Shown: piece by piece, positions 1 to 12,204 of the stretch
How the letters are laid out: each line of letters opens with the position of its first letter
How positions within the stretch are numbered: position 1 is the stretch's first letter
NCBI RefSeq assembly: GCF_019669925.1
Contig: NZ_AP019779.1
Coordinates: 1,877,292-1,901,291, forward strand
DNA from: Methanobrevibacter arboriphilus
Lineage (GTDB): Archaea; Methanobacteriota; Methanobacteria; Methanobacteriales; Methanobacteriaceae
Length of the DNA: 24,000 bases
Direction of reading: 5' to 3'
Position numbers and translations under genes: made by a program
The notes under the pieces: model-generated
Database searches by the model: none
The model's input: the letters and a program-made list of their open reading frames with translations, nothing else
Told to the model about the DNA's origin: nothing

Positions 1-254
1 TGAATATGCTTAATTTTTCCTTCCATCGAGTGATATTTATTTTTGATGTATCTCCCAATTAAAATAATAAAAATAATTAAAGAAGCGAAAATAATAATAA
101 TTACAATAAGTGTATAGAAATAATTCTCTATAACACCGAATAATGTTAGTATTTCAGTAACTAATATTCCTATAAAAGCTTGAAACCATCCTTTTTGTTT
201 ATTATATACAAAACGGAGTTTATATGATAAATCTTTAAAACACATGATAATCAT
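1..254 (-). CDS. Small membrane protein (two predicted TM helices), 3'-truncated by the window edge; last visible gene of the minus-strand cassette
   Basis: Hand translation of the minus strand from the ATG at 254-252 gives MIIMCFKDLSYKLRFVYNKQKGWFQAFIGILVTEILTLFGVIENYFYTLIVIIIIFASLIIFIILIGRYIKNKYHSMEGKIKHI..., open to position 1. There are two hydrophobic stretches of about 20 aa. The ATG shares its A with the TGA stop (256-254) of the upstream gene (TGATG overlap). It is missing from the ORF track only because it has no stop inside the window. Confidence 0.5.
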   Translation of the reverse strand, partial: MIIMCFKDLSYKLRFVYNKQKGWFQAFIGILVTEILTLFGVIENYFYTLIVIIIIFASLIIFIILIGRYIKNKYHSMEGKIKHI

Positions 255-868
255 CAAATCATAGCATGTTCAAATGTTTGAAGCACTGTTTCTTTTGAGT
301 TTTCATCATATTCATCAGGAATCATTATAGATTTTCTATAATAATAAAAAGAAATATCATCAGTTAATTGAATATCTGCTTCAATTAGTCTGTAATCTTT
401 TCCTAATTCTTTTTGACGATATTTATCTTCAAGTTCATCATCAATGTCGCCATCAACAATAGTGCCATTGTGCACAAATTTTAAATCAAAATCTTCAGCA
501 TTAAAAAGCATTTTATGTTCATTATATGAATTAGGTGAAAAATTTTCTAGTTCCTCATCCATTTTTGACTTAAAAAAAAGTTCTAATTTTTCAAATGCAT
601 CATCTTTTAATTTTTGATTTAAAGATTCAATTAATAATAACTTTGAGCTTAATCGAATTTCAAAGAATATTTTTTTATTTAAACCTTGTAAAACTACATG
701 TCCATTGATTTTTGACTTAATTTGCGAGTTTTCTTCGTCATTTTCCTTCAGTATATGTCTGTTATCAAAAAAAACATCATCTGCGTTTTTTTCTTTAAGT
801 TTATTAATATCAGTATTTTCTAATTTTTCTGATAATTCTTCACTTATTTTGTAAAGATAATAAAACAT
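254..868 (-). CDS. Hypothetical acidic protein, 204 aa, no recognisable domain
   Basis: ORF track. A GGTGGA Shine-Dalgarno (879-874) lies 5 nt upstream of the ATG at 868 and sits inside the 3' end of the upstream gene, giving a 29-nt overlap (840-868). My hand count is about 46 D/E against about 28 K/R. Confidence 0.7.
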   Translation of the reverse strand: MFYYLYKISEELSEKLENTDINKLKEKNADDVFFDNRHILKENDEENSQIKSKINGHVVLQGLNKKIFFEIRLSSKLLLIESLNQKLKDDAFEKLELFFKSKMDEELENFSPNSYNEHKMLFNAEDFDLKFVHNGTIVDGDIDDELEDKYRQKELGKDYRLIEADIQLTDDISFYYYRKSIMIPDEYDENSKETVLQTFEHAMI

Positions 869-2087
869 TTTTATCCACCAAATATTTTATATTCTCTTCT
901 ATTTTCTTTTTCACTTTTTCAGGGTATTCTTCAGTAACACAATTATTATCAAACAAATAAATTGGAGGTATCTTAGGACATTTTTCTTCTAATTTTTTGC
1001 AATGGTTTTCTCTATATCCAATAAAGTTATAAATAGTGTTTGAATATTCATCAAAAAGTTTATCTTTCAATTCATCGATAAAAGTTATGTCAGGTATTTT
1101 TTCAGAGGATTTTAATTTATTCCATTTAAAATATTCAATTAACAAATTGTTTAAAAATGGCAAAGATAGTTTGATTTTTTGACTATAATCTTTCTTTCGA
1201 ATACTATTGGCTGAATGTATTCTTATAAGTGATTCATCTTTTTTGATATCTACTTTGAATCCAATAGTGAATCTTGCTTTCCGATAAATAAATTTCCCTT
1301 TTAATTCAGATATTATTAATTTATTTATAATTCCATAAATAATGGGGAATGATAAATCTTTTCGATTATTATCAACAGTTAATATATTTTCAGATACATT
1401 ATCTTCATCTTCATCTTCAGGTTTTTCAGTTTCAAATTTCTTAAAATCTTGCAATTTTAGATTTTCATTAATATTTCCGCTAGGATTTAATTTTTTCTTA
1501 TATACTAACCATAGTAAGAAACTAGGGTTAATGTTTATTGTCTCCCAATCAAATGCTAATTTTTTATCTTTTTTATAAATATTGAGTTTATTTTCCAACA
1601 ACTTTATTGGTTTTTTACTGTGAGATTCGGCACCACATACAAATATTAAATCAAATGAAGGCACTAAAAAAATATCCACAAAAATGGATTTATCATCTGC
1701 TATATTAGTTTTAATATAACATAATTTGTCTAATTTAGCATGATTTTCATTACCTGATTCATAATTTTTTGAAATTTTAAAGTCTTGTGGTTTTCCTGTC
1801 CAAAATTCATTTTCAATGCCTAAAAAACTAAAATCAGATTGTACTGATTTTTTATAAATGAATTTGTCATAAAAACCATTTTTTTGATTAATATTATCTT
1901 CATCCGGTTTATATAGTTCTTCAGATTCTAAATCTGCAACTAATTTACTTGATAACTTTTCTGAAAGATTTTTTGTTTTAATTATTTTGGTAAAATATAA
2001 AGTTAGTTGCTCCGGTCTTTTAGGGGTATTATTATCTTTATCTGTCATCATTTTTCTCCTAATTTCAGAAACTTTAATATTAATCAT
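840..2087 (-). CDS. Hypothetical protein, 415 aa as the maximal ORF (403 aa from the alternative start at 2051); no recognisable domain
   Basis: This is the longest ORF on the strand. The internal ATGATG at 2051-2046 is preceded by AGGAG (2060-2056) and may be the true start. The ORF is K/N/E-rich with an acidic linker, EKPEDEDEDN. Several Cys lie near the C-terminus (HCKKLEEKCP...NNC). Confidence 0.75.
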   Translation of the reverse strand: MINIKVSEIRRKMMTDKDNNTPKRPEQLTLYFTKIIKTKNLSEKLSSKLVADLESEELYKPDEDNINQKNGFYDKFIYKKSVQSDFSFLGIENEFWTGKPQDFKISKNYESGNENHAKLDKLCYIKTNIADDKSIFVDIFLVPSFDLIFVCGAESHSKKPIKLLENKLNIYKKDKKLAFDWETININPSFLLWLVYKKKLNPSGNINENLKLQDFKKFETEKPEDEDEDNVSENILTVDNNRKDLSFPIIYGIINKLIISELKGKFIYRKARFTIGFKVDIKKDESLIRIHSANSIRKKDYSQKIKLSLPFLNNLLIEYFKWNKLKSSEKIPDITFIDELKDKLFDEYSNTIYNFIGYRENHCKKLEEKCPKIPPIYLFDNNCVTEEYPEKVKKKIEENIKYLVDKNVLLSLQNK

Positions 2088-2103
2088 TCACAATTTAATT
2101 TTT

Positions 2104-2430
2104 TCATTTTTCTTTTATATAATCTTCATATTTTTTCAGGAATTCACTTTCTAGTGATTCCCAATCATCATCAAGTTTTTCTCTTCCATCTTTCTTCGAT
2201 TTATATGAATCATGGAGAAAATTCAATAGATTATCTAAATCTTCAATCATTTCTATTGTTCCATCTTCTATAAATTTTTCCTGTGCTGCAGAACTCCAAT
2301 TAAGATATCTATCTTTATCCAAAAGTTTCATTATATCTAAACTTAATTTTATTCGAAATCTGTATATTTCAATTTTATTAGATTCTAGTGCTATTTTTCT
2401 TATTTCTGTTTTATCCTCTTCACTTAACAT
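2104..2430 (-). CDS. Small hypothetical protein, 108 aa, probably helical; first gene of the cassette
   Basis: ORF track. The downstream gene starts 16 nt after its stop, or 52 nt if the 2051 start is used. A TATA-like box lies about 25 nt upstream of the ATG and there is no SD, which suggests a leaderless first cistron. Confidence 0.65.
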   Translation of the reverse strand: MLSEEDKTEIRKIALESNKIEIYRFRIKLSLDIMKLLDKDRYLNWSSAAQEKFIEDGTIEMIEDLDNLLNFLHDSYKSKKDGREKLDDDWESLESEFLKKYEDYIKEK

Positions 2431-2450
2431 AATATCATATTTAATCGATA

Positions 2451-2460
2451 CATATAAAAA
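2451..2460 (-). promoter_or_regulatory. Candidate archaeal TATA box for the minus-strand cassette (leaderless transcript)
   Basis: The minus strand reads TTTTTATATG, centred about 25 nt upstream of the ATG at 2430. No SD lies between them. Archaeal TATA boxes sit at about -26/-27 from the TSS. Confidence 0.35.
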
Positions 2461-2892
2461 CTTAATTATTTATCATAAGATTTTTACCTGTATATATTTA
2501 AATAAATATATATCTATTAAAATTCAATTTTAAATATAACAACTAAAAAAATAATTTTACTTAAAAATTAGTATTATAATTTTCAATTTTCACAATTGAT
2601 AAAATTAATGGTCATTTATAAGAGATTATTGGATATTTTTTGATGGGTCTGGATGGAAGCATAATCCATGGGGTATTTTAGATTCAAATAACATATTTAG
2701 ATTCTAATGCTTATGGAAAGAATACATATAATATTTGTATAGTCCTTATTTTTTTATTTAATTAGTTACTGATAAAAAATTAAAAAAAATAAAAACAAAC
2801 TTTGATAAGAAACTAATACGGCACATATTAAGACATAATTTCACAATATATTTATTAAATCATGTAAAATTATTATTTTGAGGATTGGGCGT

Positions 2893-4047
2893 ATGTTATT
2901 TCATAAAAAGATAGACGAAATTTCAGAAAAGGATATAAATAATATAGTTGGAAATGAAGTTTTTGAAGATAAATATTTGGAGTATAAATCTGAGTATAAT
3001 CATTCAGATAAAATAAAATTCAAGTTAATAAAAACTGTTTGTGGATTTGCAAACTCAGATGGTGGTTTATTAATCTATGGGATAACAGAAGACGAAAACC
3101 ATACTCCTTCAGAAGTTACAGGGGTTAAATTAGATAGTAGTTTTGATAATGAAGTTAATTGGATTGAAAGTATAGTTTCTTCAAATTCGGAGCCAAGTAT
3201 TTCGAATATAGAAATAAGACAAATAGAAATTAAAGAATCTGATAGGATTATCTTGATTATTAAAGTTCCAAAAAGCTGGAACCTTCCACATAGAGTTGTG
3301 CAAGGAAAACCTAATAAAAAAAGTGAATCTAAAAGAGAATTTTTTGTCAGACGACAATCGAAAACAGTTCCATTGGAGATTGACGAATTGAAAAATCTAT
3401 TTAGTTTTGCAGGAGATGTTCATGATAAGATTCATTTATTTAGAGATAATCAAATAGCTAAAGTCGTTTCTGACAATGTATTTATATGCACTGACTCTCA
3501 AATAGCATTACTCATTGATTTAATTCCTTTTAACAGTTTTAATAATGTTGAATTTGATATTAGAGAAACAAAAGATCAAGTTCCAACTTTTGGCCAAGGA
3601 GATTCTAGATATGGGGAATATAATTTTGAGGGAGTTATAAGTAAATCAATGATTCACTATTCTCAAATCTATAGAAATGGGATTATTGAAGGTTTAGTGT
3701 CTTCGAACAGATTTTTAAAGGTTCCTCTTAAAGAATTTTTTGAATATACACTAAATTTTATAAATGATTCTATAAAATTATATGAAAAGATAAATTTTTC
3801 ACCACCCTTCGCTATTTTTATATCACTTATAAATATCGAAAATCGTAATCTTGAAACTTTGTTTTTTGATAAGGAAGCTATTAGTGATAGAAATGTTTTA
3901 CCTGGTCATGAAATCATGATTGAAAAGTATTTATCTAAAAATGAGATAGCATTTAAACTCAAAACTGTTTTTGATTCATTTTATAATCATTTTGGGATTG
4001 AAAATTCTCCTTTTTACGATGAAGAAGGCAATTGGAAGAAAAAATGA
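2893..4047 (+). CDS. AlbA_2 (Schlafen-like, 'divergent AAA'/putative DNA-binding) domain protein with an uncharacterised C-terminal half
   Basis: The N-terminal ~180 aa match AlbA_2 hallmarks in order: EDKYLEYKSE, then VCGFANSDGGLLIYGITED, then IILIIKVPKSWNLPHRV, then EFFVRRQSKTVPLEIDELKNLF. The ATG at 2893 is preferred over the TTG at 2878 because GAGGA lies about 9 nt upstream of it. Confidence 0.8.
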   Translation: MLFHKKIDEISEKDINNIVGNEVFEDKYLEYKSEYNHSDKIKFKLIKTVCGFANSDGGLLIYGITEDENHTPSEVTGVKLDSSFDNEVNWIESIVSSNSEPSISNIEIRQIEIKESDRIILIIKVPKSWNLPHRVVQGKPNKKSESKREFFVRRQSKTVPLEIDELKNLFSFAGDVHDKIHLFRDNQIAKVVSDNVFICTDSQIALLIDLIPFNSFNNVEFDIRETKDQVPTFGQGDSRYGEYNFEGVISKSMIHYSQIYRNGIIEGLVSSNRFLKVPLKEFFEYTLNFINDSIKLYEKINFSPPFAIFISLINIENRNLETLFFDKEAISDRNVLPGHEIMIEKYLSKNEIAFKLKTVFDSFYNHFGIENSPFYDEEGNWKKK

Positions 4048-4070
4048 ATTTTTATAATGCATAATTAGAA

Positions 4071-4078
4071 TTTATATA
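4071..4078 (+). promoter_or_regulatory. Candidate TATA box (TTTATATA) upstream of the HEPN-protein gene
   Basis: An exact TTTATATA is centred about 31 nt upstream of the ATG at 4106. This implies a very short leader or none. It is only a sequence match. Confidence 0.3.
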
Positions 4079-4105
4079 AACTTTTAGTTGTTTTCAGTGG
4101 ATACA

Positions 4106-5659
4106 ATGTCATTAAAAAATCTTAAAATCCCCCATATTCCATATTTAAATTTTAATCAGGATAAAGATAAAAATATCATTTTTCAAGCTATCTCAGGTGT
4201 TATTAAATCCACCTCAGAAGATAAAAAAGATGATATATTTGATATTAAATTAGTGATTTCAAATGATATAAAGATATATTTTTCTATTAGTCTTTTTAGT
4301 ACTTATTTTTTTAAAAAATATGGCGAATATGAAGAAGATAAAAAAAATATTGTAGATGGAACTCCTGATATAAGTTTTTATTCAAACATCTATTTTGTTG
4401 ACTCAAAAAACCGATATGATGTGAAAATAAAAAATTTTTTCGTAGATAGTTACAAATTTAACTTTTCAGGAGATTATTCAACACTCAAAGCATATATAGT
4501 GGGAGTCTGTGAAGAAATAGTTGTTTATGATAATGATTTTTCAGATAATGAAACTGTCGAATCATGGGAAATAATAGAAAATACTATTTTTAGTCAACCC
4601 AAAGGCTTTGGATTTAAAAATATCCAGATTGAAAAACTATTCTTAAAAGGTTTGGACACTAATGAATTTAATAGTGTCAATTTGAATAAAAAATGTATTA
4701 ACCAGTTTAAATATGCTACAGGATACTTTTATTATAAAGATAAGTTTAAAAATTTGAATAAATGGGATAAACGATTAGATAATATTTATTATTTGTTAGC
4801 TTTCTATAATTCTGATTTTAATAATCGTAGAATTACTTTAATTGAAGGAGAAAACAAAACAAAAATGATTTTCAGAGATAGGTATTTAGGAGAATCAAAT
4901 GGCAAAAATATATTTGAAAAAAATGGATATAATTTATTTAATCTTATTGATTCTACTTATTCTCCTCTAACTAATTTAGAACTTAAAGAGATAGATTTTA
5001 AGTTACTTATTGAATATTTTATTTATATAGAAAATGCATATAATATTAAAAATGAAATTCTGTTCTCTTCAATATTTTTAGAAATATTAAAAAATCAATA
5101 TAAAACAAACAATGATTCAACATTGTTAGATAATCTTAAAAATGCACTAAATGTGCATGAATTAAATTCTAACAAATTGTTTGAAATTCTTCATGCTAAT
5201 TATGGAATTGATTTTAAAAAGATAGAGAAAAATATTTTAAATGAATACAAGAATTCTAAAGATAGAAAAAATATTCTTAAAATGTTTGCTATGTTTAAAT
5301 CTAATTATTTCTTAAATAAATTAAAACTATATAGAAACAATATAGTGCATACTGGAAAAATGAATATTTCTGTGGAGGAAAATATTGAAATCATTGATGA
5401 AATTTCTAAATATTTGAAAAAAAGTTTCAATGGTAATAAAAACGAAGAAATTTTAGATAAAATTTCTAATAGTCTTAATGATGAGATAAATTCTGGAAAT
5501 TTTAGAGAGGATTTTGATTTGCAACAAAATTTTCTTAAAGAATTTATAATAATTATATTATTAGCTATTTTTGATGTGAATTGCAACATAAAAAGAAACA
5601 CTATAATGGGTAATAACATTAGTAGAAATTCTATAGACTATCTCAATCAATTTAAGTAA
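4106..5659 (+). CDS. Large protein with a C-terminal HEPN-type Rx4H motif (ApeA-like architecture); putative RNase effector
   Basis: YRNNIVH is encoded at 5333-5350 (R-N-x3-H) in a helical C-terminal region, preceded by a ~400-aa unassigned N-terminal region. The ATG at 4106 is preferred over the TTG at 4088. The gene starts 58 nt after the AlbA_2 gene on the same strand. Confidence 0.7.
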   Translation: MSLKNLKIPHIPYLNFNQDKDKNIIFQAISGVIKSTSEDKKDDIFDIKLVISNDIKIYFSISLFSTYFFKKYGEYEEDKKNIVDGTPDISFYSNIYFVDSKNRYDVKIKNFFVDSYKFNFSGDYSTLKAYIVGVCEEIVVYDNDFSDNETVESWEIIENTIFSQPKGFGFKNIQIEKLFLKGLDTNEFNSVNLNKKCINQFKYATGYFYYKDKFKNLNKWDKRLDNIYYLLAFYNSDFNNRRITLIEGENKTKMIFRDRYLGESNGKNIFEKNGYNLFNLIDSTYSPLTNLELKEIDFKLLIEYFIYIENAYNIKNEILFSSIFLEILKNQYKTNNDSTLLDNLKNALNVHELNSNKLFEILHANYGIDFKKIEKNILNEYKNSKDRKNILKMFAMFKSNYFLNKLKLYRNNIVHTGKMNISVEENIEIIDEISKYLKKSFNGNKNEEILDKISNSLNDEINSGNFREDFDLQQNFLKEFIIIILLAIFDVNCNIKRNTIMGNNISRNSIDYLNQFK

Positions 5660-5851
5660 ATTTATTTAAAAGAGAATTTATGCAAAAAAATTAACGCTCG
5701 TTTTCCAATCACAGCTTCTTTTTTAGAAGATAGCTCAATGTATTATGAGATTCAAGCTAGAAGAGAAGATGAAGAAGCTGAAATAATGGATTTAGAATAT
5801 TATTTTATTCAAAAATTTAGTAAATTGAAACTTCATTATCCATGAAAAAGA

Positions 5852-7000
5852 CTAATTATTACTACAATAGTTGTTATTATCCATTTCTAAAATAGAATTT
5901 TTCATATCTATCATGAAAAATTCAAGTGTTTGCTGATAAATTATACTGTCCATACTAGGTTTATATGTCAATAGCCAAGTTGTGGCTTGACAAATAGAAA
6001 TAGCTGTGTTTTGGATTGTTTCTCCAAGCCCATAGTTACTCGCCCCCCAATGTAAAATTTTTTCCTGTTTTTCACTAGGTAAACTTGTATTATATAATCC
6101 TCTTGAAAGGCCATGAATTGAAGCTGATGAAAGATTATAATAGGGTATCAGATGGTCAACATTAACAAATTTAGCCAAAGCTTTAAAATATGGTTTACAA
6201 ATTTCTTTAGGAATCCAACCCCAATCATAATCAAATTCTTTACCATATTTTTCAATTAATTCATCCCTTTGCTCTTTAATTTTTTCAAAATTATCAGTAT
6301 TTGGGATGTAATCATCATCAGGATGTAATCTTTCATAATAATTTTGATATTCTTTAATGTCTTTGTATGTTCTAATAATTTCATGTTCCATATATCTTTT
6401 TGTAACATAAAACTCATTTTTTGATAAGAAAGCTGAAATGACAGATAATTCATATAAAGTTCTCCATCTTGAATTAGCACCATCCCCATAACCTGTCTTT
6501 AAAAGAGTTAATATCTCATTAGATACACGGAGTGCTCTTGCATGAAGTTGCATTAAAACATTTAATTTACAATCATCACTATCTTTATTATAAATATCTC
6601 TAGAATGAAGATTGACTGACTCGAAGCACATAATAATCAAGACTTCAAGGTTACCAAGTATTTCTCCCCATTGGTCATGCACCAAATTTTCAAATTCATT
6701 TCTTTCATCAGCATATTCTTCTAGCATTGAATTCATATTTTCTTTTATAAATTTTACTAACTCATTAGAACCTGTAGATGTTGCATCTGTTAGTAATTTG
6801 GGGAGTTTGTCATTAATAAATTCATCATTAGGAAAATATCCTTTAACACTGATATATTTTTCTACAATAAATGATAAAATTTTTTCTCCAGTATTAGGCT
6901 TTTCAATCCCATAATTATTTATTTTCCTTTTTTTATAGTTTGTATTAATTATTATTAGATGTGAATGTTTAATGGAATGCTGTTTTCTATTGTATCTCAT
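5852..7000 (-). CDS. Hypothetical helical protein, 382 aa, possibly DUF5677-like
   Basis: Long ORF with non-repetitive composition. The segment LHARALRVSNEILTLLKTGYGDGANSRWRTLYELSVISAFL resembles, from memory, the conserved core of DUF5677-type proteins. That assignment is unverified. Confidence 0.65.
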   Translation of the reverse strand: MRYNRKQHSIKHSHLIIINTNYKKRKINNYGIEKPNTGEKILSFIVEKYISVKGYFPNDEFINDKLPKLLTDATSTGSNELVKFIKENMNSMLEEYADERNEFENLVHDQWGEILGNLEVLIIMCFESVNLHSRDIYNKDSDDCKLNVLMQLHARALRVSNEILTLLKTGYGDGANSRWRTLYELSVISAFLSKNEFYVTKRYMEHEIIRTYKDIKEYQNYYERLHPDDDYIPNTDNFEKIKEQRDELIEKYGKEFDYDWGWIPKEICKPYFKALAKFVNVDHLIPYYNLSSASIHGLSRGLYNTSLPSEKQEKILHWGASNYGLGETIQNTAISICQATTWLLTYKPSMDSIIYQQTLEFFMIDMKNSILEMDNNNYCSNN

Positions 7001-7070: not shown

Positions 7071-7908
7071 AGCTTGCTGTATGCATACAGATAAACACCT
7101 TGGTAGTATGTTCCTGTGATATTGTATGGTTTTGGTTTATTGGTATTGTTATCGCTGTCTGCATACAGATCAACACCATATGTTCCTGTGATATTGTATG
7201 GTTTTGGTTATATGTGGCGTTGTTATCGCTGTATGCAGCCAGAGCAACACCATAGTCTGTTCCTGTGATATCGTTAGGCTTTGGTTATATGTGGTATTTT
7301 TGCTGCTGTATGCAGCCAGATAAACACCTCGTGATGTTCCTGTGATGCTGCATTGTCTTGTTTATATGATGTGTTGTTATCGCTGTCTGCATACAGAGAA
7401 ACACCATTGCCTGATGTTCCTGTGAATTGTTGTGTAATCTTGGTTATATGTGGTATTTTTGCTGCTGGATGCAGACAGAGAAACACCATCGTAGTATGTT
7501 CCTGTGTTTGTTATTTTTGGCTTTGGTTTATTGGTATTGTTATCGCTGTATGCATACAGCTCAACACCATAGTCTGTTCCTGTGGATTGTTGTGTAGTTT
7601 CGGTTATATGTGGTATTTTTGCTGCTGGATGCAGACAGATAAACACCATATGTTCCTGTGATGTTGTTGTGTAGTCTTGTTTATATGGGATGTTGTTATC
7701 GCTGTATGCATACAGATAAACACCATCGTATGTTCCTGTGATATTTTATTGGCTTTGGTTTATATGTGGCGTTGTTGCTGCTGGATGCATCCAGATAAAC
7801 ACCTAGTGATGTTCCTGTGAATTGTTGTATTGTCTTGTTTATATGGTTGTGTTGTTATCGCTTTATGCATCCAGATAAACACCATTGTATGTTCCTGTGA
7901 TGTTGTTG
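7071..7908 (-). pseudogene. Decayed, inverted copy of the adhesin-like gene's NNITGT...GVYL.AYSSNNTNITFA repeat cassette (about 11 units of ~72-80 bp)
   Basis: The reverse complement matches 9346-10143. Exact inverted matches are 7219-7269 with 9511-9561 (51 bp), 7832-7861 with 9551-9580 (30 bp) and 7785-7820 with 9593-9628 (36 bp). Only short, frame-hopping ORFs are present (6997..7179, 7274..7489, 7377..7649). Confidence 0.85.
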
Positions 7909-8560
7909 AGCTATTTTTTTGGGTTTTTTTTTCTTTTTTTATTAGTTGTTTTTTTATTGTTTGGGTGGTTTGTTGTTCTTTGTTTGGTGTTTTAGTTGTT
8001 TTGGTTGTTTTTTGTTTTTTTATTAGTTGTTTTTTGCTTTGTAGATGTTATATTGTTCTTTGTTTTAGTGTTTTGTTTTATTTTTATTCTTTTTTATTAT
8101 TATTAATCGTTTTTGTTCTTTTGTGGTGGTTTATTTTTGTTGTAGTTTTTTTGAATATTTTTTTGTTTTATATATGGTTGTGCTTGATAACAGCTATTTT
8201 GTTTTTGATGATATTGTAATTTTATTTTTTTTATTTTTGTTTTTTTATATTCTGTATGTTTATGTTGTTTAGCTGTTATTTTTTAGATTTTCTTATTATT
8301 TTTTTATTTTATATTACTTGTTTTTTATTTTTTTTAGTGTTTATTTTTTATTTAGCTTTATTATATTATTATAATAGGTTTGTATTGTTTTAAAGCTTTT
8401 ATATTTGTTATATTTCAGTTTAGAGTTTTTTATTTATTTTTTTTAGTTGTTATTTTTTTATTTTGTTTTTTGTTCTTATTTTTGTCTTATTCTTGTTTTT
8501 CTTCTTTTTTTATTTTTTAAACAGCTATTTCACTATTTTTGCGGGGGGGGGGGTGGCTAT
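7909..8560. repeat. Low-complexity tract made almost entirely of T and G on the plus strand
   Basis: By direct reading there are dozens of T5-T10 runs interspersed with G/GT, and very few A or C. TTTTTATTAGTTGTTTTTT recurs near 7945 and near 8015. Confidence 0.8.
8543..8553. repeat. Homopolymeric G11 tract upstream of the adhesin-like gene
   Basis: gcGGGGGGGGGGGtgg read directly from the sequence. It lies 163 nt upstream of the ATG at 8716. Confidence 0.9.
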
Positions 8561-8715: not shown

Positions 8716-9573
8716 ATGTTTAAGAATAAGTTTTTTGTTTCGTTTGTGTTAGTACTAGCTTTTTTATTTTTGTTTAGTTTGTCTAGTGTTAGTGCAGGTG
8801 AGTATGATTTTACTAGTAGTAATACTACTGAACAGTTTCAGAATGTTATTGATACTGATGTGGGGGATGAGTTGATTATTAATTTGGATGATGATGGTAA
8901 TTATTCTCTGGGTCAGATTAATGTGACTCGTAATGCTACTATAGTTGGTAAGAATCATAATGTTAATATTACTGGATCAGGGTCTGGTGTTTTGTTTAAT
9001 ATTACGAATAGTAGTGTTCGTATTATTAATTTAACTATCACTGGTTATACTAGTGCTATTGTTGGTAATAGTAGTGATTTAACGGTTACTGGTAATAATA
9101 TTACTACTAGTGGTATTAGTATTAATATTAGTAGTAGTGGTGATAATTTAACGAATATAATTATTGAGGATAATGTTATTGTTTCTTCTGTTAGTAATAT
9201 TTATTATGGTGCTGTTTTTGTTAATGGTAATGGTATGGCTATTTCTTTTGTTTCTTTTATTAATAATAGTATACGTGGTAATGGTACTAGTAATTCTAAT
9301 GGTGTTCGTATTAATTCTAAGGGTATTAATAATTTGACTTTTGATGGAAACAACATCACAGGAACATACGATGGTGTTTATCTGGATGCATCCAGCAGCA
9401 ACAACACCAATATAACCTTTGCCAACAACAACATCACAGGAACATACAATGGTGTTTATCTGGCTGCATACAGCAGCAACAACACCAATATAACCTTTGC
9501 CAACAACAACATCACAGGAACAGACTATGGTGTTGCTCTGGCTGCATACAGCGATAACAACACAACCATATAA
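8716..9573 (+). CDS. Asn/Thr-rich adhesin-like surface protein, N-terminal part (signal peptide plus parallel beta-helix repeats), ending at an in-frame TAA
   Basis: AGGAGTGA SD upstream of the ATG. The signal peptide is MFKNKFFVSFVLVLAFLFLFSLSSVSA|GE. The body carries 26-27-aa NNITG-type coils. The stop at 9571-9573 is in the same frame as the next ORF. Confidence 0.8.
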   Translation: MFKNKFFVSFVLVLAFLFLFSLSSVSAGEYDFTSSNTTEQFQNVIDTDVGDELIINLDDDGNYSLGQINVTRNATIVGKNHNVNITGSGSGVLFNITNSSVRIINLTITGYTSAIVGNSSDLTVTGNNITTSGISINISSSGDNLTNIIIEDNVIVSSVSNIYYGAVFVNGNGMAISFVSFINNSIRGNGTSNSNGVRINSKGINNLTFDGNNITGTYDGVYLDASSSNNTNITFANNNITGTYNGVYLAAYSSNNTNITFANNNITGTDYGVALAAYSDNNTTI

Positions 9574-9759
9574 ACAAGACTACACAACAACATCACAGGA
9601 ACATCACTAGGTGTTTATCTGGATGCATACAATAGTAATAACTCACAATTTACATTCGACCACAACAATATCACAGGAACAATACGCGATGGTGTTTATC
9701 TGGAGGCATACAATAGTAATAACTCACAATTTACATTCGACCACAACAATATCACAGGA

Positions 9760-12204
9760 ATGAATTATGGTGGTGTTTATCTGAGGGCATACAATAGTAA
9801 TAACTCACAATTTACATTCGACCACAACAACATCACAGGAACATCAAGCTGTGGTGTTTATCTGGAGGCATACAATAGTAGCAATACCAATATATCCTTT
9901 GCCAACAATAACATCACAGGAACAGACTATGGTGTTTATCTGTATGCATACATGAGTAACAATACCAATGTATCTTTCATTGGTAACAATATCTTAGGAG
10001 CACGTGGTGTTACTCTGTATGCAGACAGCAGCAACAACACCAATATAACCTTCGCCAACAACAACATCACAGGAACATCATACTATGGTGTTTTTCTGAG
10101 GGTATACAGCAGCAACAACACCAATATAACCTTCGCCAACAACAACATTACTGGTGTTAGTTATGGTGTGAATTTTTATTCTAATAATGGTAATATTAGT
10201 AGTGTTATGTTTTTGAATAATACTATAAATGCTACTGGTGGTAGTGGTTTTTATTTTGTTAATGGTGGTAGTGGTGCTATTAATGTGACTGATTTTATTA
10301 TCAAGGGTAATAATATCTTTGCTACTAATGCTGGTTTGAATTTCAGTGGTCTTAAGGTTGGTTCTCTTGTTAATGTTACTGTTGAGTATAATAGGATTAT
10401 TGCTCCTGTTGGTGTGAATATTACTGGTTTTTATAATGGTAGTAGTTTTGATTTTAATTGGTGGGGTGTTAATGATATAACTGGTAAAACTTTAGGTGTT
10501 GATACGGTTAATCATTTTATTTTGAATGTTACTAATCTTAATAGTTTGGATAATCTTCATCCTGGCGATGATGTTAGTTTTGCGTTTTTAGTGCTGAATA
10601 CTACTCTTGTTAATGATGGTGTTGAGTATTTGCCTTATTTTGTGGTGAATGGTACTTATAACAATCAGACTTTTTATGTTAATAATTCTAGTAATTTTAC
10701 TGGTAATTGGACTGTGTCTAACGTTGGAGATAATGTTTTTGTTGCGACTTTGGATAGTCAGGATGTGGATTTCAGATTTTCTGAAAGTAAGTTGGATACT
10801 AATTCTACTATTAGTGTGGATGATGTTCATGTTGGTACTATTGCTAGTATTAGTGGTCAGTTGGATAATTATGCTGGTAATGGTTCTGATTTGTTGAATG
10901 TTACTGTGGATGGTAACCTTTATGAAAATGTTGTTATTAATAGTACTGGTGGTTGGAATTTAACTTATTTGACTAATCGTACAGGAAACATCACAGTAAC
11001 TGTTGATTATTCTGGTAATGATAATTATACAAGTTTTAGTAATAGTACAAGTTTTGATGTGCTTAAAAATAGTACTAACTCTACTATTGATGTTTTTGGT
11101 GATTTTAGGGTTGGTGAAAATATTACTATTAGTGGTATTTTGGTTGATGTTAATAGTGATCCTATAGATAATGCTCAAATGACAATTATTATTGGTAATG
11201 AGTCTTTTAATGTGACAACTAATAGTAGTGGTGTTTGGAGTCTTGTTTATGCTCCGCTTCATGGTAGTGAGTTCTTTACTTGGGTTAACTGGGCTGGTAA
11301 TGATAATTACACAGGTTTTAATAATAGTACTAGTTTTAATGTTAGTAAGTTAGCTAGTAATTCTAGTATTGTTATTCCTGTTGATATTAAGGTTAATGAA
11401 ACAGTTTTAATTTCTGGTGTTTTATCTGATGAGAATAATAATACAATATCTGGTGCTAATTTAGAAGTTATTATTGATGGTGAAACCTTTAATGTGATTA
11501 CTGATTCTGTTGGTTTTTGGGGTTTAAATTATACTTCTGAACATTCTGGTGTTTTTAATTTATCTCTCTTTTATCAGGGTGATAGTCGGTATGTTGGTTT
11601 TGTTGAAAATAAGGTTTTTAATGTTAGTAAGTTAGCTACTACTTCTAGTATTAATATTCCAAGTAATGTTAAAGTAGGAAAACCATTTAGTGTTTCTGGT
11701 GTTTTGACTAGTGGTGGTAAACCATTGGCTAATGCTAGTGTTCTTGTTATTGTTGATGGTAAAACTTATAAGGTTACTACTAATGGTCTTGGTGTTTGGA
11801 AACTGTCTTATACTCCGAAAATAGCTGGAAAATCTACTATTAAGGTTTATTTTGCTGGTAATAATGATTATATTGGTTTTAATGTTAGTAAGACTTTTAA
11901 AATTGCCGGGAAAGTTAATATAAGGATTGTTAAGATTTCTAAGCTTGTTAAAGTGGGTAAGTATAATGGTTTTAATCTTTATAGTAAAGTTTACACTATT
12001 AAAAATGTGGGATCTGCTTTAGGTTCTAAGGATTATGTTAAGTATTTTAAGAATTGGTATTTGGAGAAATTGTCTAAGACTAGTAAAATTGTTAAGTATC
12101 AGTTTAGTGCTAAGTCTAGGGTTTTAAAGGTTCAAGTTAAGAATTTAGGTGTTGGAAAACAAGTTAAGTTGAAAATACTAGTAACACATAGAAAAAGACT
12201 ATAA
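9760..12204 (+). CDS. Asn/Thr-rich adhesin-like surface protein, C-terminal part (beta-helix repeats, four ~93-aa Ig-like repeats, K-rich tail)
   Basis: Same frame as 8716..9573. Codons 9574-9759 are open and continue the repeat (TRLHNNITGTSLGVYLDAYNSNNSQFTFDHNNITG...). The four tandem modules span about 10780-11910, for example SKLASNSSIVIPVDIKVNETVLISGVL...FNV. Together the two parts form one 8716..12204 gene of 1161 sense codons with a single internal TAA. Confidence 0.8.
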   Translation: MNYGGVYLRAYNSNNSQFTFDHNNITGTSSCGVYLEAYNSSNTNISFANNNITGTDYGVYLYAYMSNNTNVSFIGNNILGARGVTLYADSSNNTNITFANNNITGTSYYGVFLRVYSSNNTNITFANNNITGVSYGVNFYSNNGNISSVMFLNNTINATGGSGFYFVNGGSGAINVTDFIIKGNNIFATNAGLNFSGLKVGSLVNVTVEYNRIIAPVGVNITGFYNGSSFDFNWWGVNDITGKTLGVDTVNHFILNVTNLNSLDNLHPGDDVSFAFLVLNTTLVNDGVEYLPYFVVNGTYNNQTFYVNNSSNFTGNWTVSNVGDNVFVATLDSQDVDFRFSESKLDTNSTISVDDVHVGTIASISGQLDNYAGNGSDLLNVTVDGNLYENVVINSTGGWNLTYLTNRTGNITVTVDYSGNDNYTSFSNSTSFDVLKNSTNSTIDVFGDFRVGENITISGILVDVNSDPIDNAQMTIIIGNESFNVTTNSSGVWSLVYAPLHGSEFFTWVNWAGNDNYTGFNNSTSFNVSKLASNSSIVIPVDIKVNETVLISGVLSDENNNTISGANLEVIIDGETFNVITDSVGFWGLNYTSEHSGVFNLSLFYQGDSRYVGFVENKVFNVSKLATTSSINIPSNVKVGKPFSVSGVLTSGGKPLANASVLVIVDGKTYKVTTNGLGVWKLSYTPKIAGKSTIKVYFAGNNDYIGFNVSKTFKIAGKVNIRIVKISKLVKVGKYNGFNLYSKVYTIKNVGSALGSKDYVKYFKNWYLEKLSKTSKIVKYQFSAKSRVLKVQVKNLGVGKQVKLKILVTHRKRL

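Follow-up and report, generated by a model that had tools for sequence, protein, structure and literature searches.

The first 2.46 kilobases (kb) of a 24,000-nucleotide (nt) stretch of DNA from Methanobrevibacter arboriphilus, the whole of which is referred to here as the window, carry a cassette of four open reading frames (ORFs), all on the minus strand and designated genes A, B, C and D. Three of these, B-C-D, are most likely an undescribed archaeal exclusion module, which may work like the lambda RexAB system. In its specific form, this reading takes B-C-D to be an archaeal virus-exclusion module, acting by abortive infection or by superinfection exclusion, that follows lambda RexAB logic; we give it a probability of roughly 0.45. 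Current support consists of the genomic context and of a medium-strength fold match obtained with a predicted model; the fold match of B to RdgC leads to the Rex-like logic, and the 'defence' role is what we infer from context. The original prediction for this DNA was a novel defence or toxin-type system. The accessory, mobile and defence-type setting of the genes supports this in part, but the unit comprises three genes, and B appears to be recognizable by its predicted fold.

The order B-C-D recurs in 10 independent contexts and is complete wherever the contig continues, even though the identity between B proteins drops to ~20% across these contexts. Lengths of B, C and D are 415, 204 and 277 amino acids (aa) in the window, 402/205/272 aa at locus L008, 384/191/232 aa at L006, 344/177/246 aa at L037, 338/211/207 aa at L013, 343/215/203 aa at L017, 362/211/209 aa at L023 and 348/258/214 aa at L024. 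Two further copies run into contig ends: at L012 (B 344 aa) C breaks off after at least 116 aa and D lies beyond the contig, and at L021 (B 332 aa, C 201 aa) D breaks off after at least 50 aa. By these comparisons the conserved unit is the three genes B-C-D, not four. Gene A is present at L001-L005 and absent from L006-L011, and tblastn retrieved no homologue of it outside M. arboriphilus-type loci; at other B-C-D loci the sequence preceding B is 500-600 nt of non-coding DNA or a restriction-modification (R-M) gene. A is on this evidence a lineage-specific local addition that lies outside the conserved module. It shares a strand with B across a gap of just 16-52 nt, has the single TATA-like box upstream of it and is possibly co-transcribed with B-C-D, all of which would suit a four-protein stoichiometric system with A as its integral first component, for example an antitoxin or a regulator. 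Against this, A is missing from every other B-C-D locus examined and matches no family in Pfam, PADLOC, PHROG or NCBIfam, and a four-protein system is very unlikely. The coupled four-gene cassette that had been proposed, with its co-occurrence as a patchily distributed block, therefore holds for B-C-D, a rare unit whose genes appear translationally coupled, but not for A.

The genomic contexts of B-C-D are strikingly varied. The L006 and L007 sequences are collinear with a complete Methanobacteriales virus, vir323, and share 78% nucleotide identity with it to either side of a slot that is bounded by the prohead protease gene and a capsid-like gene; at L006 B-C-D fills this slot with non-homologous 2.8 kb, and the same slot in vir323 is 1.5 kb long, with unrelated small ORFs and no B-C-D. 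The same provirus remnant is found at L011, where B is split and genes for PglZ and BrxL (BREX) and an nSTAND protein follow. When L011 13654-17024 is set against L006 from 13888 onward, the L011 remnant ends after the capsid-like gene and gives way to PglZ, BrxL and the 1554-aa nSTAND protein, and in L006 the full virus structural module continues beyond this point; the comparison suggests that in L011 a provirus in decay had its distal part replaced by defence genes. At L037-L040 the module belongs to an integrated plasmid-like element that has primase and Rep genes, and lies there between an N6_N4 methyltransferase/RE_CfrBI pair and the integrase. The assemblies with these copies are from the human gut and other sources; in the collection 73 blocks index the B protein of this element, and one close relative comes from a cultured Methanobrevibacter. 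The L008 module follows a gene that by its motifs resembles a tyrosine recombinase and lies beside housekeeping genes, and the neighbours at L017 are an MmeI-type R-M system and Nmad3. Directly downstream of the distant B-C-D copy at L013, positions 5065-5961 encode a 298-aa protein with Cys-rich segments and, by eye, an HKD motif (HGKLYLID) of the kind seen in PLD-type nucleases or phospholipases; possibly this lineage has gained it as an extra effector. When one genome per species was scanned, there was a single match, on a short contig of a metagenome-assembled genome, which suggests that the species-representative M. arboriphilus genome is without the cassette. Taken together, these placements identify B-C-D as a mobile accessory module, found mainly in Methanobacteriales and with distant relatives in other uncultured archaeal lineages, and its accessory, mobile and defence-neighbourhood character is well supported by them. 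Portable accessory cargo of this kind points to defence or exclusion genes, and the inference is drawn from context.

The upstream region of the provirus copy has a feature of its own. Directly downstream of the prohead protease gene, ~450 nt of GC-rich sequence (L006 9441-9900, also in L007 and L011) are non-coding and form obvious hairpins; this stretch, which has no Rfam match, was considered as a possible RNA component upstream of B. A counterpart, 73-74% conserved, occurs at L020 2474-2907 in vir323, which lacks B-C-D, and the stretch was accordingly assigned to the virus and not to the module; it may give rise to a structured RNA of the virus or act as a DNA site.

Two other functions have to be weighed against these contexts. 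The L006 copy lies in the late region of the provirus, between prohead protease and capsid gene, and D has an N-terminal transmembrane hairpin, as might be expected of a viral lysis or holin-like cassette or of a virion-assembly accessory. Such a role is barely credible, however: the module is also found outside viral contexts, the collinear vir323 lacks it, D with its 203-277 aa and large soluble domain is unlike holins, and no PHROG matches B, C or the first 84 residues of D. The second possibility is that B-C-D serves the mobile element itself, as a maintenance or addiction module or as a modulator of lysogeny or the life cycle, in which B and C bind element DNA while D tethers or regulates at the membrane. 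The module is always on or beside mobile genetic elements (in a provirus slot, next to integrases, in an integrated plasmid that encodes primase and Rep), RexA is a modulator of the bistable switch of lambda without RexB and apart from exclusion (PMC11077077), and the RdgC-like fold predicted for B implies DNA binding and not an enzymatic effector. On the other hand, the variety of the carriers, of which one is a tailed virus, another is plasmid-like and others are islands where no replication genes are obvious, fits portable cargo better, the related virus vir323 manages without B-C-D, and the remnant at L011 has persisted around a B that is itself split and decaying. We consider service to the element unlikely.

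The proteins of the cassette had been described as unrecognizable. This stands for the sequence libraries, since Pfam, PADLOC, PHROG and NCBIfam gave no match that reaches or approaches curated cut-offs for A, B, C or the first 84 residues of D, but the predicted fold of B does match RdgC-like proteins. No model of PADLOC-DB v2.0 matched A-D, any of 60 B homologues or the distant counterparts of C and D at E<=0.001, and the best matches were isolated ones with E 0.004-0.012. Nor did Pfam or PADLOC yield profile matches to housekeeping families. A search of 5.8 billion proteins turned up just four clusters related to B, and an exhaustive profile search of 1.84 billion representatives collected 75 family representatives at E<1e-3, mostly 310-370 aa long. 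None of 60 family members was matched by Pfam or PADLOC, and a sequence search of the PDB with the B profile returned nothing. By these searches B is the founding member of an unannotated, rare family, whose invariant positions (F190, W193, W322 and G152) are hydrophobic or structural.

The main clue to the function of B comes from its predicted structure. An AlphaFold2 model based on a 60-sequence alignment (pLDDT 81, pTM 0.77) shows two alpha/beta domains followed by long C-terminal helices. When this model was compared with the predicted viral structures of BFVD using Foldseek, seven of the top ten matches were phage proteins annotated as RdgC or 'exonuclease recombination-associated', with E-values of 7e-6 to 2e-3 overall and of 7e-6 to 7e-4 for those annotated as RdgC, probabilities of 0.98-1.0, TM-scores of 0.30-0.43 and 346-434 aligned columns. 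RdgC and lambda RexA are related in structure, and RexA is a dimer that binds DNA non-specifically and acts together with a membrane effector (PMC11077077). Judged by the model, B probably has an RdgC/RexA-type (DNA-clamp) fold. BFVD matches to TBP, with a probability of ~0.5, further suggest that B contains TBP-like alpha/beta modules. A longin/roadblock reading of B and C was dropped since the corresponding Foldseek matches in the PDB (longin-domain RabGEF subunits, RnlA, CYTH) score negligibly, and an RnlA/HEPN reading was dropped for the same negligible scores and for the lack of a conserved Rx4-6H motif in the B family alignment.

The same fold match raises the question of whether B, perhaps along with C, is a true modulator of recombination of the RdgC type. 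It would inhibit strand exchange by RadA or RecA-like proteins, and mobile elements would use it to protect or control their DNA; D would then be an unrelated membrane protein from a co-transcribed gene, and no immune system would be involved. The matched proteins are phage RdgC-annotated proteins, which are common in lytic phage replication modules, and no toxin-like domain is present in the cassette. Yet phage RdgC genes in replication and recombination modules lack a membrane partner, whereas here a transmembrane partner and C are strictly conserved and coupled; Pfam RdgC (PF04381) matches 0 of 60 family members; and the neighbours are R-M and abortive-infection-type genes, not replication genes. 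A recombination modulator is quite unlikely.

Gene C encodes an acidic protein (46 D/E against 28 K/R, as had been noted, and an isoelectric point (pI) of 4.7), and a partner of 177-258 aa occupies its position downstream of B in all contexts. Homologues of C can be linked by a BLAST chain (window to L021, 6e-11; L021 to L013, 1e-3; L013 to L023, 1e-21). The AlphaFold2 model of C, built on a 6-sequence alignment, is confident for residues 1-104 (pLDDT ~85 in the N-terminal half) and poor in the C-terminal half, and its best Foldseek match in the PDB is RdgC, at a non-significant score. Profile comparisons by hhalign with an 11-sequence RdgC alignment assembled for the purpose gave faint matches for B (E 0.04) and C (E 0.009) over 32-40 columns, and both fall on one common RdgC strand-helix element. 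The order of strands and helices in C mirrors that of B residues 29-324, which comprise the two alpha/beta domains.

Gene D leaves the window after 84 codons. The original prediction of a small membrane protein is correct as to the membrane and not as to the size: identical copies on longer contigs give a full length of 277 aa, with two N-terminal transmembrane helices at about residues 23-72 by hydropathy and a tail of ~200 aa. K/R-rich stretches to either side of the hairpin make it probable that this tail is cytoplasmic. NCBI lists the protein as 'hypothetical protein MARBORIA2_17850 [Methanobrevibacter arboriphilus]', and neither full-length D nor its distant counterparts have a Pfam or PADLOC match. 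The counterparts (203-277 aa) keep one or two N-terminal transmembrane segments and a soluble tail across loci, and D is a candidate membrane effector or anchor.

These elements can be assembled into a working model of a Rex-like exclusion module. B, possibly paired with C, would bind or sense invading or replicating viral DNA or DNA-protein complexes and would then signal to D, whose cytoplasmic domain and transmembrane hairpin might then impair the membrane or stop infection at a membrane-linked step; A would be a species-specific addition and not part of the core. A more far-reaching version presents B-C-D as the first Rex-like exclusion or abortive-infection system of Archaea, a three-component system in which a hetero-oligomeric RdgC/RexA-fold clamp (B+C) senses viral DNA and switches on a new two-transmembrane-helix effector, D, and which passes between viruses, plasmids and defence islands of methanogens, among them elements from human-gut metagenomes. 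In this extended form the proposal is tentative and open to considerable doubt.

It is important to point out that several observations weigh against a Rex-like interpretation. No sequence-level link of the module to RexA, RexB or RdgC emerged from Pfam, PADLOC or hhalign, with E-values no better than 0.009. The TM-scores of the BFVD matches to B are just 0.30-0.43, and against the PDB the B model has no significant Foldseek match, with RexA (8TWQ) and RdgC (2OWL) outside the top 50. The B-family alignment holds no conserved catalytic or basic motif, and the family is mostly acidic, with a median pI of 4.7 that speaks neither for nor against a basic pore. C was also considered as a paralogue of B, and this was rejected: the order of secondary structure elements alone agrees, and profile comparisons are non-significant. 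The sequence of D, unlike its architecture, is barely conserved outside Methanobacteriales, and D differs from RexB, which has four transmembrane helices, in combining two such helices with a soluble domain (~130-200 aa across D counterparts). Finally, two scans of IMG/VR revealed no further viral copies and no true relatives.

The layout of the cassette in the window is as it had been described, including all four minus-strand genes and every reported junction. Gene A (2104-2430) encodes an acidic protein of 108 aa; gene B, as its longest ORF (840-2087), a soluble protein of 415 aa; and gene C (254-868) a soluble protein of 204 aa. The first 84 codons of D occupy positions 1-254, read in frame from 254 down to 3 with the ATG at 254-252. 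The gap between A and B is 16 nt, and it widens to 52 nt with the ATG at 2051 as the start of B; 4 nt upstream of this ATG lies an AGGAG Shine-Dalgarno-like motif (2056-2060, minus strand). This alternative start had been pointed out earlier and is favoured here: the true start of B is probably the ATG at 2051 or 2048 (M13 or M14, ~402 aa) because M14 is invariant in homologue alignments and the closest homologue begins there. B and C overlap by 29 nt, and a GGTGGA Shine-Dalgarno-like motif (874-879, minus strand) within the end of B, 5 nt upstream of the ATG of C at 868, suggests translational coupling of C by its placement inside B; the start at 868 is supported by the conservation of an MFYY(L/I)YK N-terminus among C homologues. 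The C/D junction reads TGATG, where the stop TGA (256-254) and the start ATG (254-252) have base 254 in common. With these junctions B, C and D are, as far as sequence can tell, translationally coupled. The TATA-like box TTTTTATATG at 2451-2460 (2460-2451 as read on the minus strand) lies ~25 nt upstream of the ATG of A, a position that fits a leaderless archaeal promoter, and it is a plausible candidate promoter of a leaderless A(-B-C-D) transcript. The proposal of one TATA-like box driving a leaderless first cistron is thus plausible, not proven, because comparable octamers number ~55 in 48 kb (both strands of the AT-rich window, 22-24% GC).

Accessory genes surround the cassette on both sides, as the suggested defence-island context implies. 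Extension of the contig past the window edge on the D side revealed a convergent AbiTii gene and an integrase fragment, and on the opposite side lie genes for an AlbA_2 protein, a 523-aa protein and a DUF5677 protein; at other loci R-M genes and BREX remnants are found. Housekeeping genes (CofD, GTP cyclohydrolase III, HemA) occupy the window from ~12.7 kb onward, and the cassette therefore lies in an accessory island of a methanogen chromosome. The two plus-strand genes at 2878-5659 had been called an AlbA_2/HEPN pair. The first does encode an AlbA_2 protein of 389 aa (Pfam E 2e-18), which also matches the N-terminal region of phrog_12156, 'DNA helicase'. HEPN identity was not confirmed for the 523-aa protein, which starts 40 nt later and has no match in Pfam, PADLOC or the PDB, with an RNNIVH (Rx4H) motif near its C-terminus seen by eye. 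The pair is kept beside the cassette in L001-L003 and L005, and may be a separate two-gene defence candidate. The DUF5677 protein (5852-7000, minus strand, 382 aa) is an accessory gene of the island, with matches to Pfam at E 2e-28 and to the phage family phrog_27456 at E 2e-48.

Further into the window, a 77-78-nt unit is repeated in tandem ~10.6 times at 7076-7907, in reverse complement to 78-nt repeats at 9349-9760, which lie mostly inside a beta-helix gene (8716-9573), so that the two arrays form a large inverted pair flanking the region from 7.9 to 9.3 kb. The pair could be what is left of an inverted gene copy after decay, or it could provide a substrate on which adhesin-like genes invert or recombine. 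The stretch at 7900-8560 is extremely T-rich on the plus strand (AT skew to -0.56) and contains many short T-rich tandem repeats, no long ORF and a G-rich run, GCGGGGGGGGGGTGG, at ~8543-8557. Rfam and tRNA scans of the window were empty.

Apart from CRISPR and R-M, the antiviral systems of archaea have been little explored, and next to nothing is known of them in Methanobrevibacter, the dominant methanogens of gut and rumen. If the exclusion reading is true, B-C-D offers a testable candidate for virus-virus and virus-host competition, carried on a Methanobrevibacter-type provirus and on an integrated plasmid that many human-gut assemblies contain. Confirmation of an RdgC/RexA-type fold would extend the 70-year-old Rex paradigm to Archaea. 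The module would then also provide a new effector architecture and a possible heterodimeric sensor, and could help to explain how RexA-like clamps signal to their membrane partners.

How, then, does B-C-D compare with known systems? Abortive-infection systems with N-terminal two-transmembrane-helix effectors include CBASS, with Cap15, and Pycsar, with its transmembrane effectors. D resembles these effectors in having an N-terminal transmembrane hairpin and a soluble domain and in being the last gene of a defence-type operon; unlike CBASS and Pycsar operons, the cassette and its neighbours have no cyclase domain, and PADLOC matches neither D nor its counterparts. RnlA combines TBP-like NTD/NRD domains with HEPN, and the B and C models have weak Foldseek matches to its alpha/beta domains; these are non-significant (E>0.1, TM-score ~0.1-0.2), and the B alignment contains neither an Rx4-6H motif nor a HEPN domain. 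The ring-shaped DNA-binding dimer RdgC (PF04381) is closer, in that phage RdgC-annotated models are the best structural matches of the B model. It differs in that RdgC genes stand alone, with no C-like or membrane partner, no B-family member has a Pfam RdgC match, TM-scores reach just 0.30-0.43 and RdgC in the PDB falls outside the top 50 of B.

The comparison with RexAB-like systems covered lambda RexAB, Sbash gp30/31, CarolAnn gp44/43, Butters and P. putida RexABpp. A 2026 study of a P. putida prophage counted just five RexAB-like systems, and those it named are from bacterial phages or prophages (PMC12894663). At the level of sequence B-C-D falls outside RexAB: there is no similarity to RexA or RexB (hhalign E-values against lambda RexA are 0.33 for the B profile and 0.77 for the C profile), and RexA (8TWQ) was not retrieved by Foldseek with the B model. 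The module also has three conserved genes rather than two and, unlike lambda RexAB, is archaeal and not beside an immunity repressor; as to carriage, one lineage occupies a provirus slot, and the window copy and others lie in islands or integrated plasmids. The likeness to RexAB is one of organization and predicted fold. In B-C-D, as in RexAB, the gene of a soluble protein with a predicted RdgC-related fold adjoins that of a membrane protein, enzymatic domains are missing, and the genes can ride temperate viruses or other mobile genetic elements. In size, too, the B family (310-370 aa) is similar to the actinophage RexA-like proteins, which measure 337-372 aa (PMC11077077, PMC12894663). In the RexAB-like system of the P. 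putida prophage the membrane partner is a growth-arresting effector triggered by the RexA-like protein (PMC12894663), and it is this division of labour that B and D may share.

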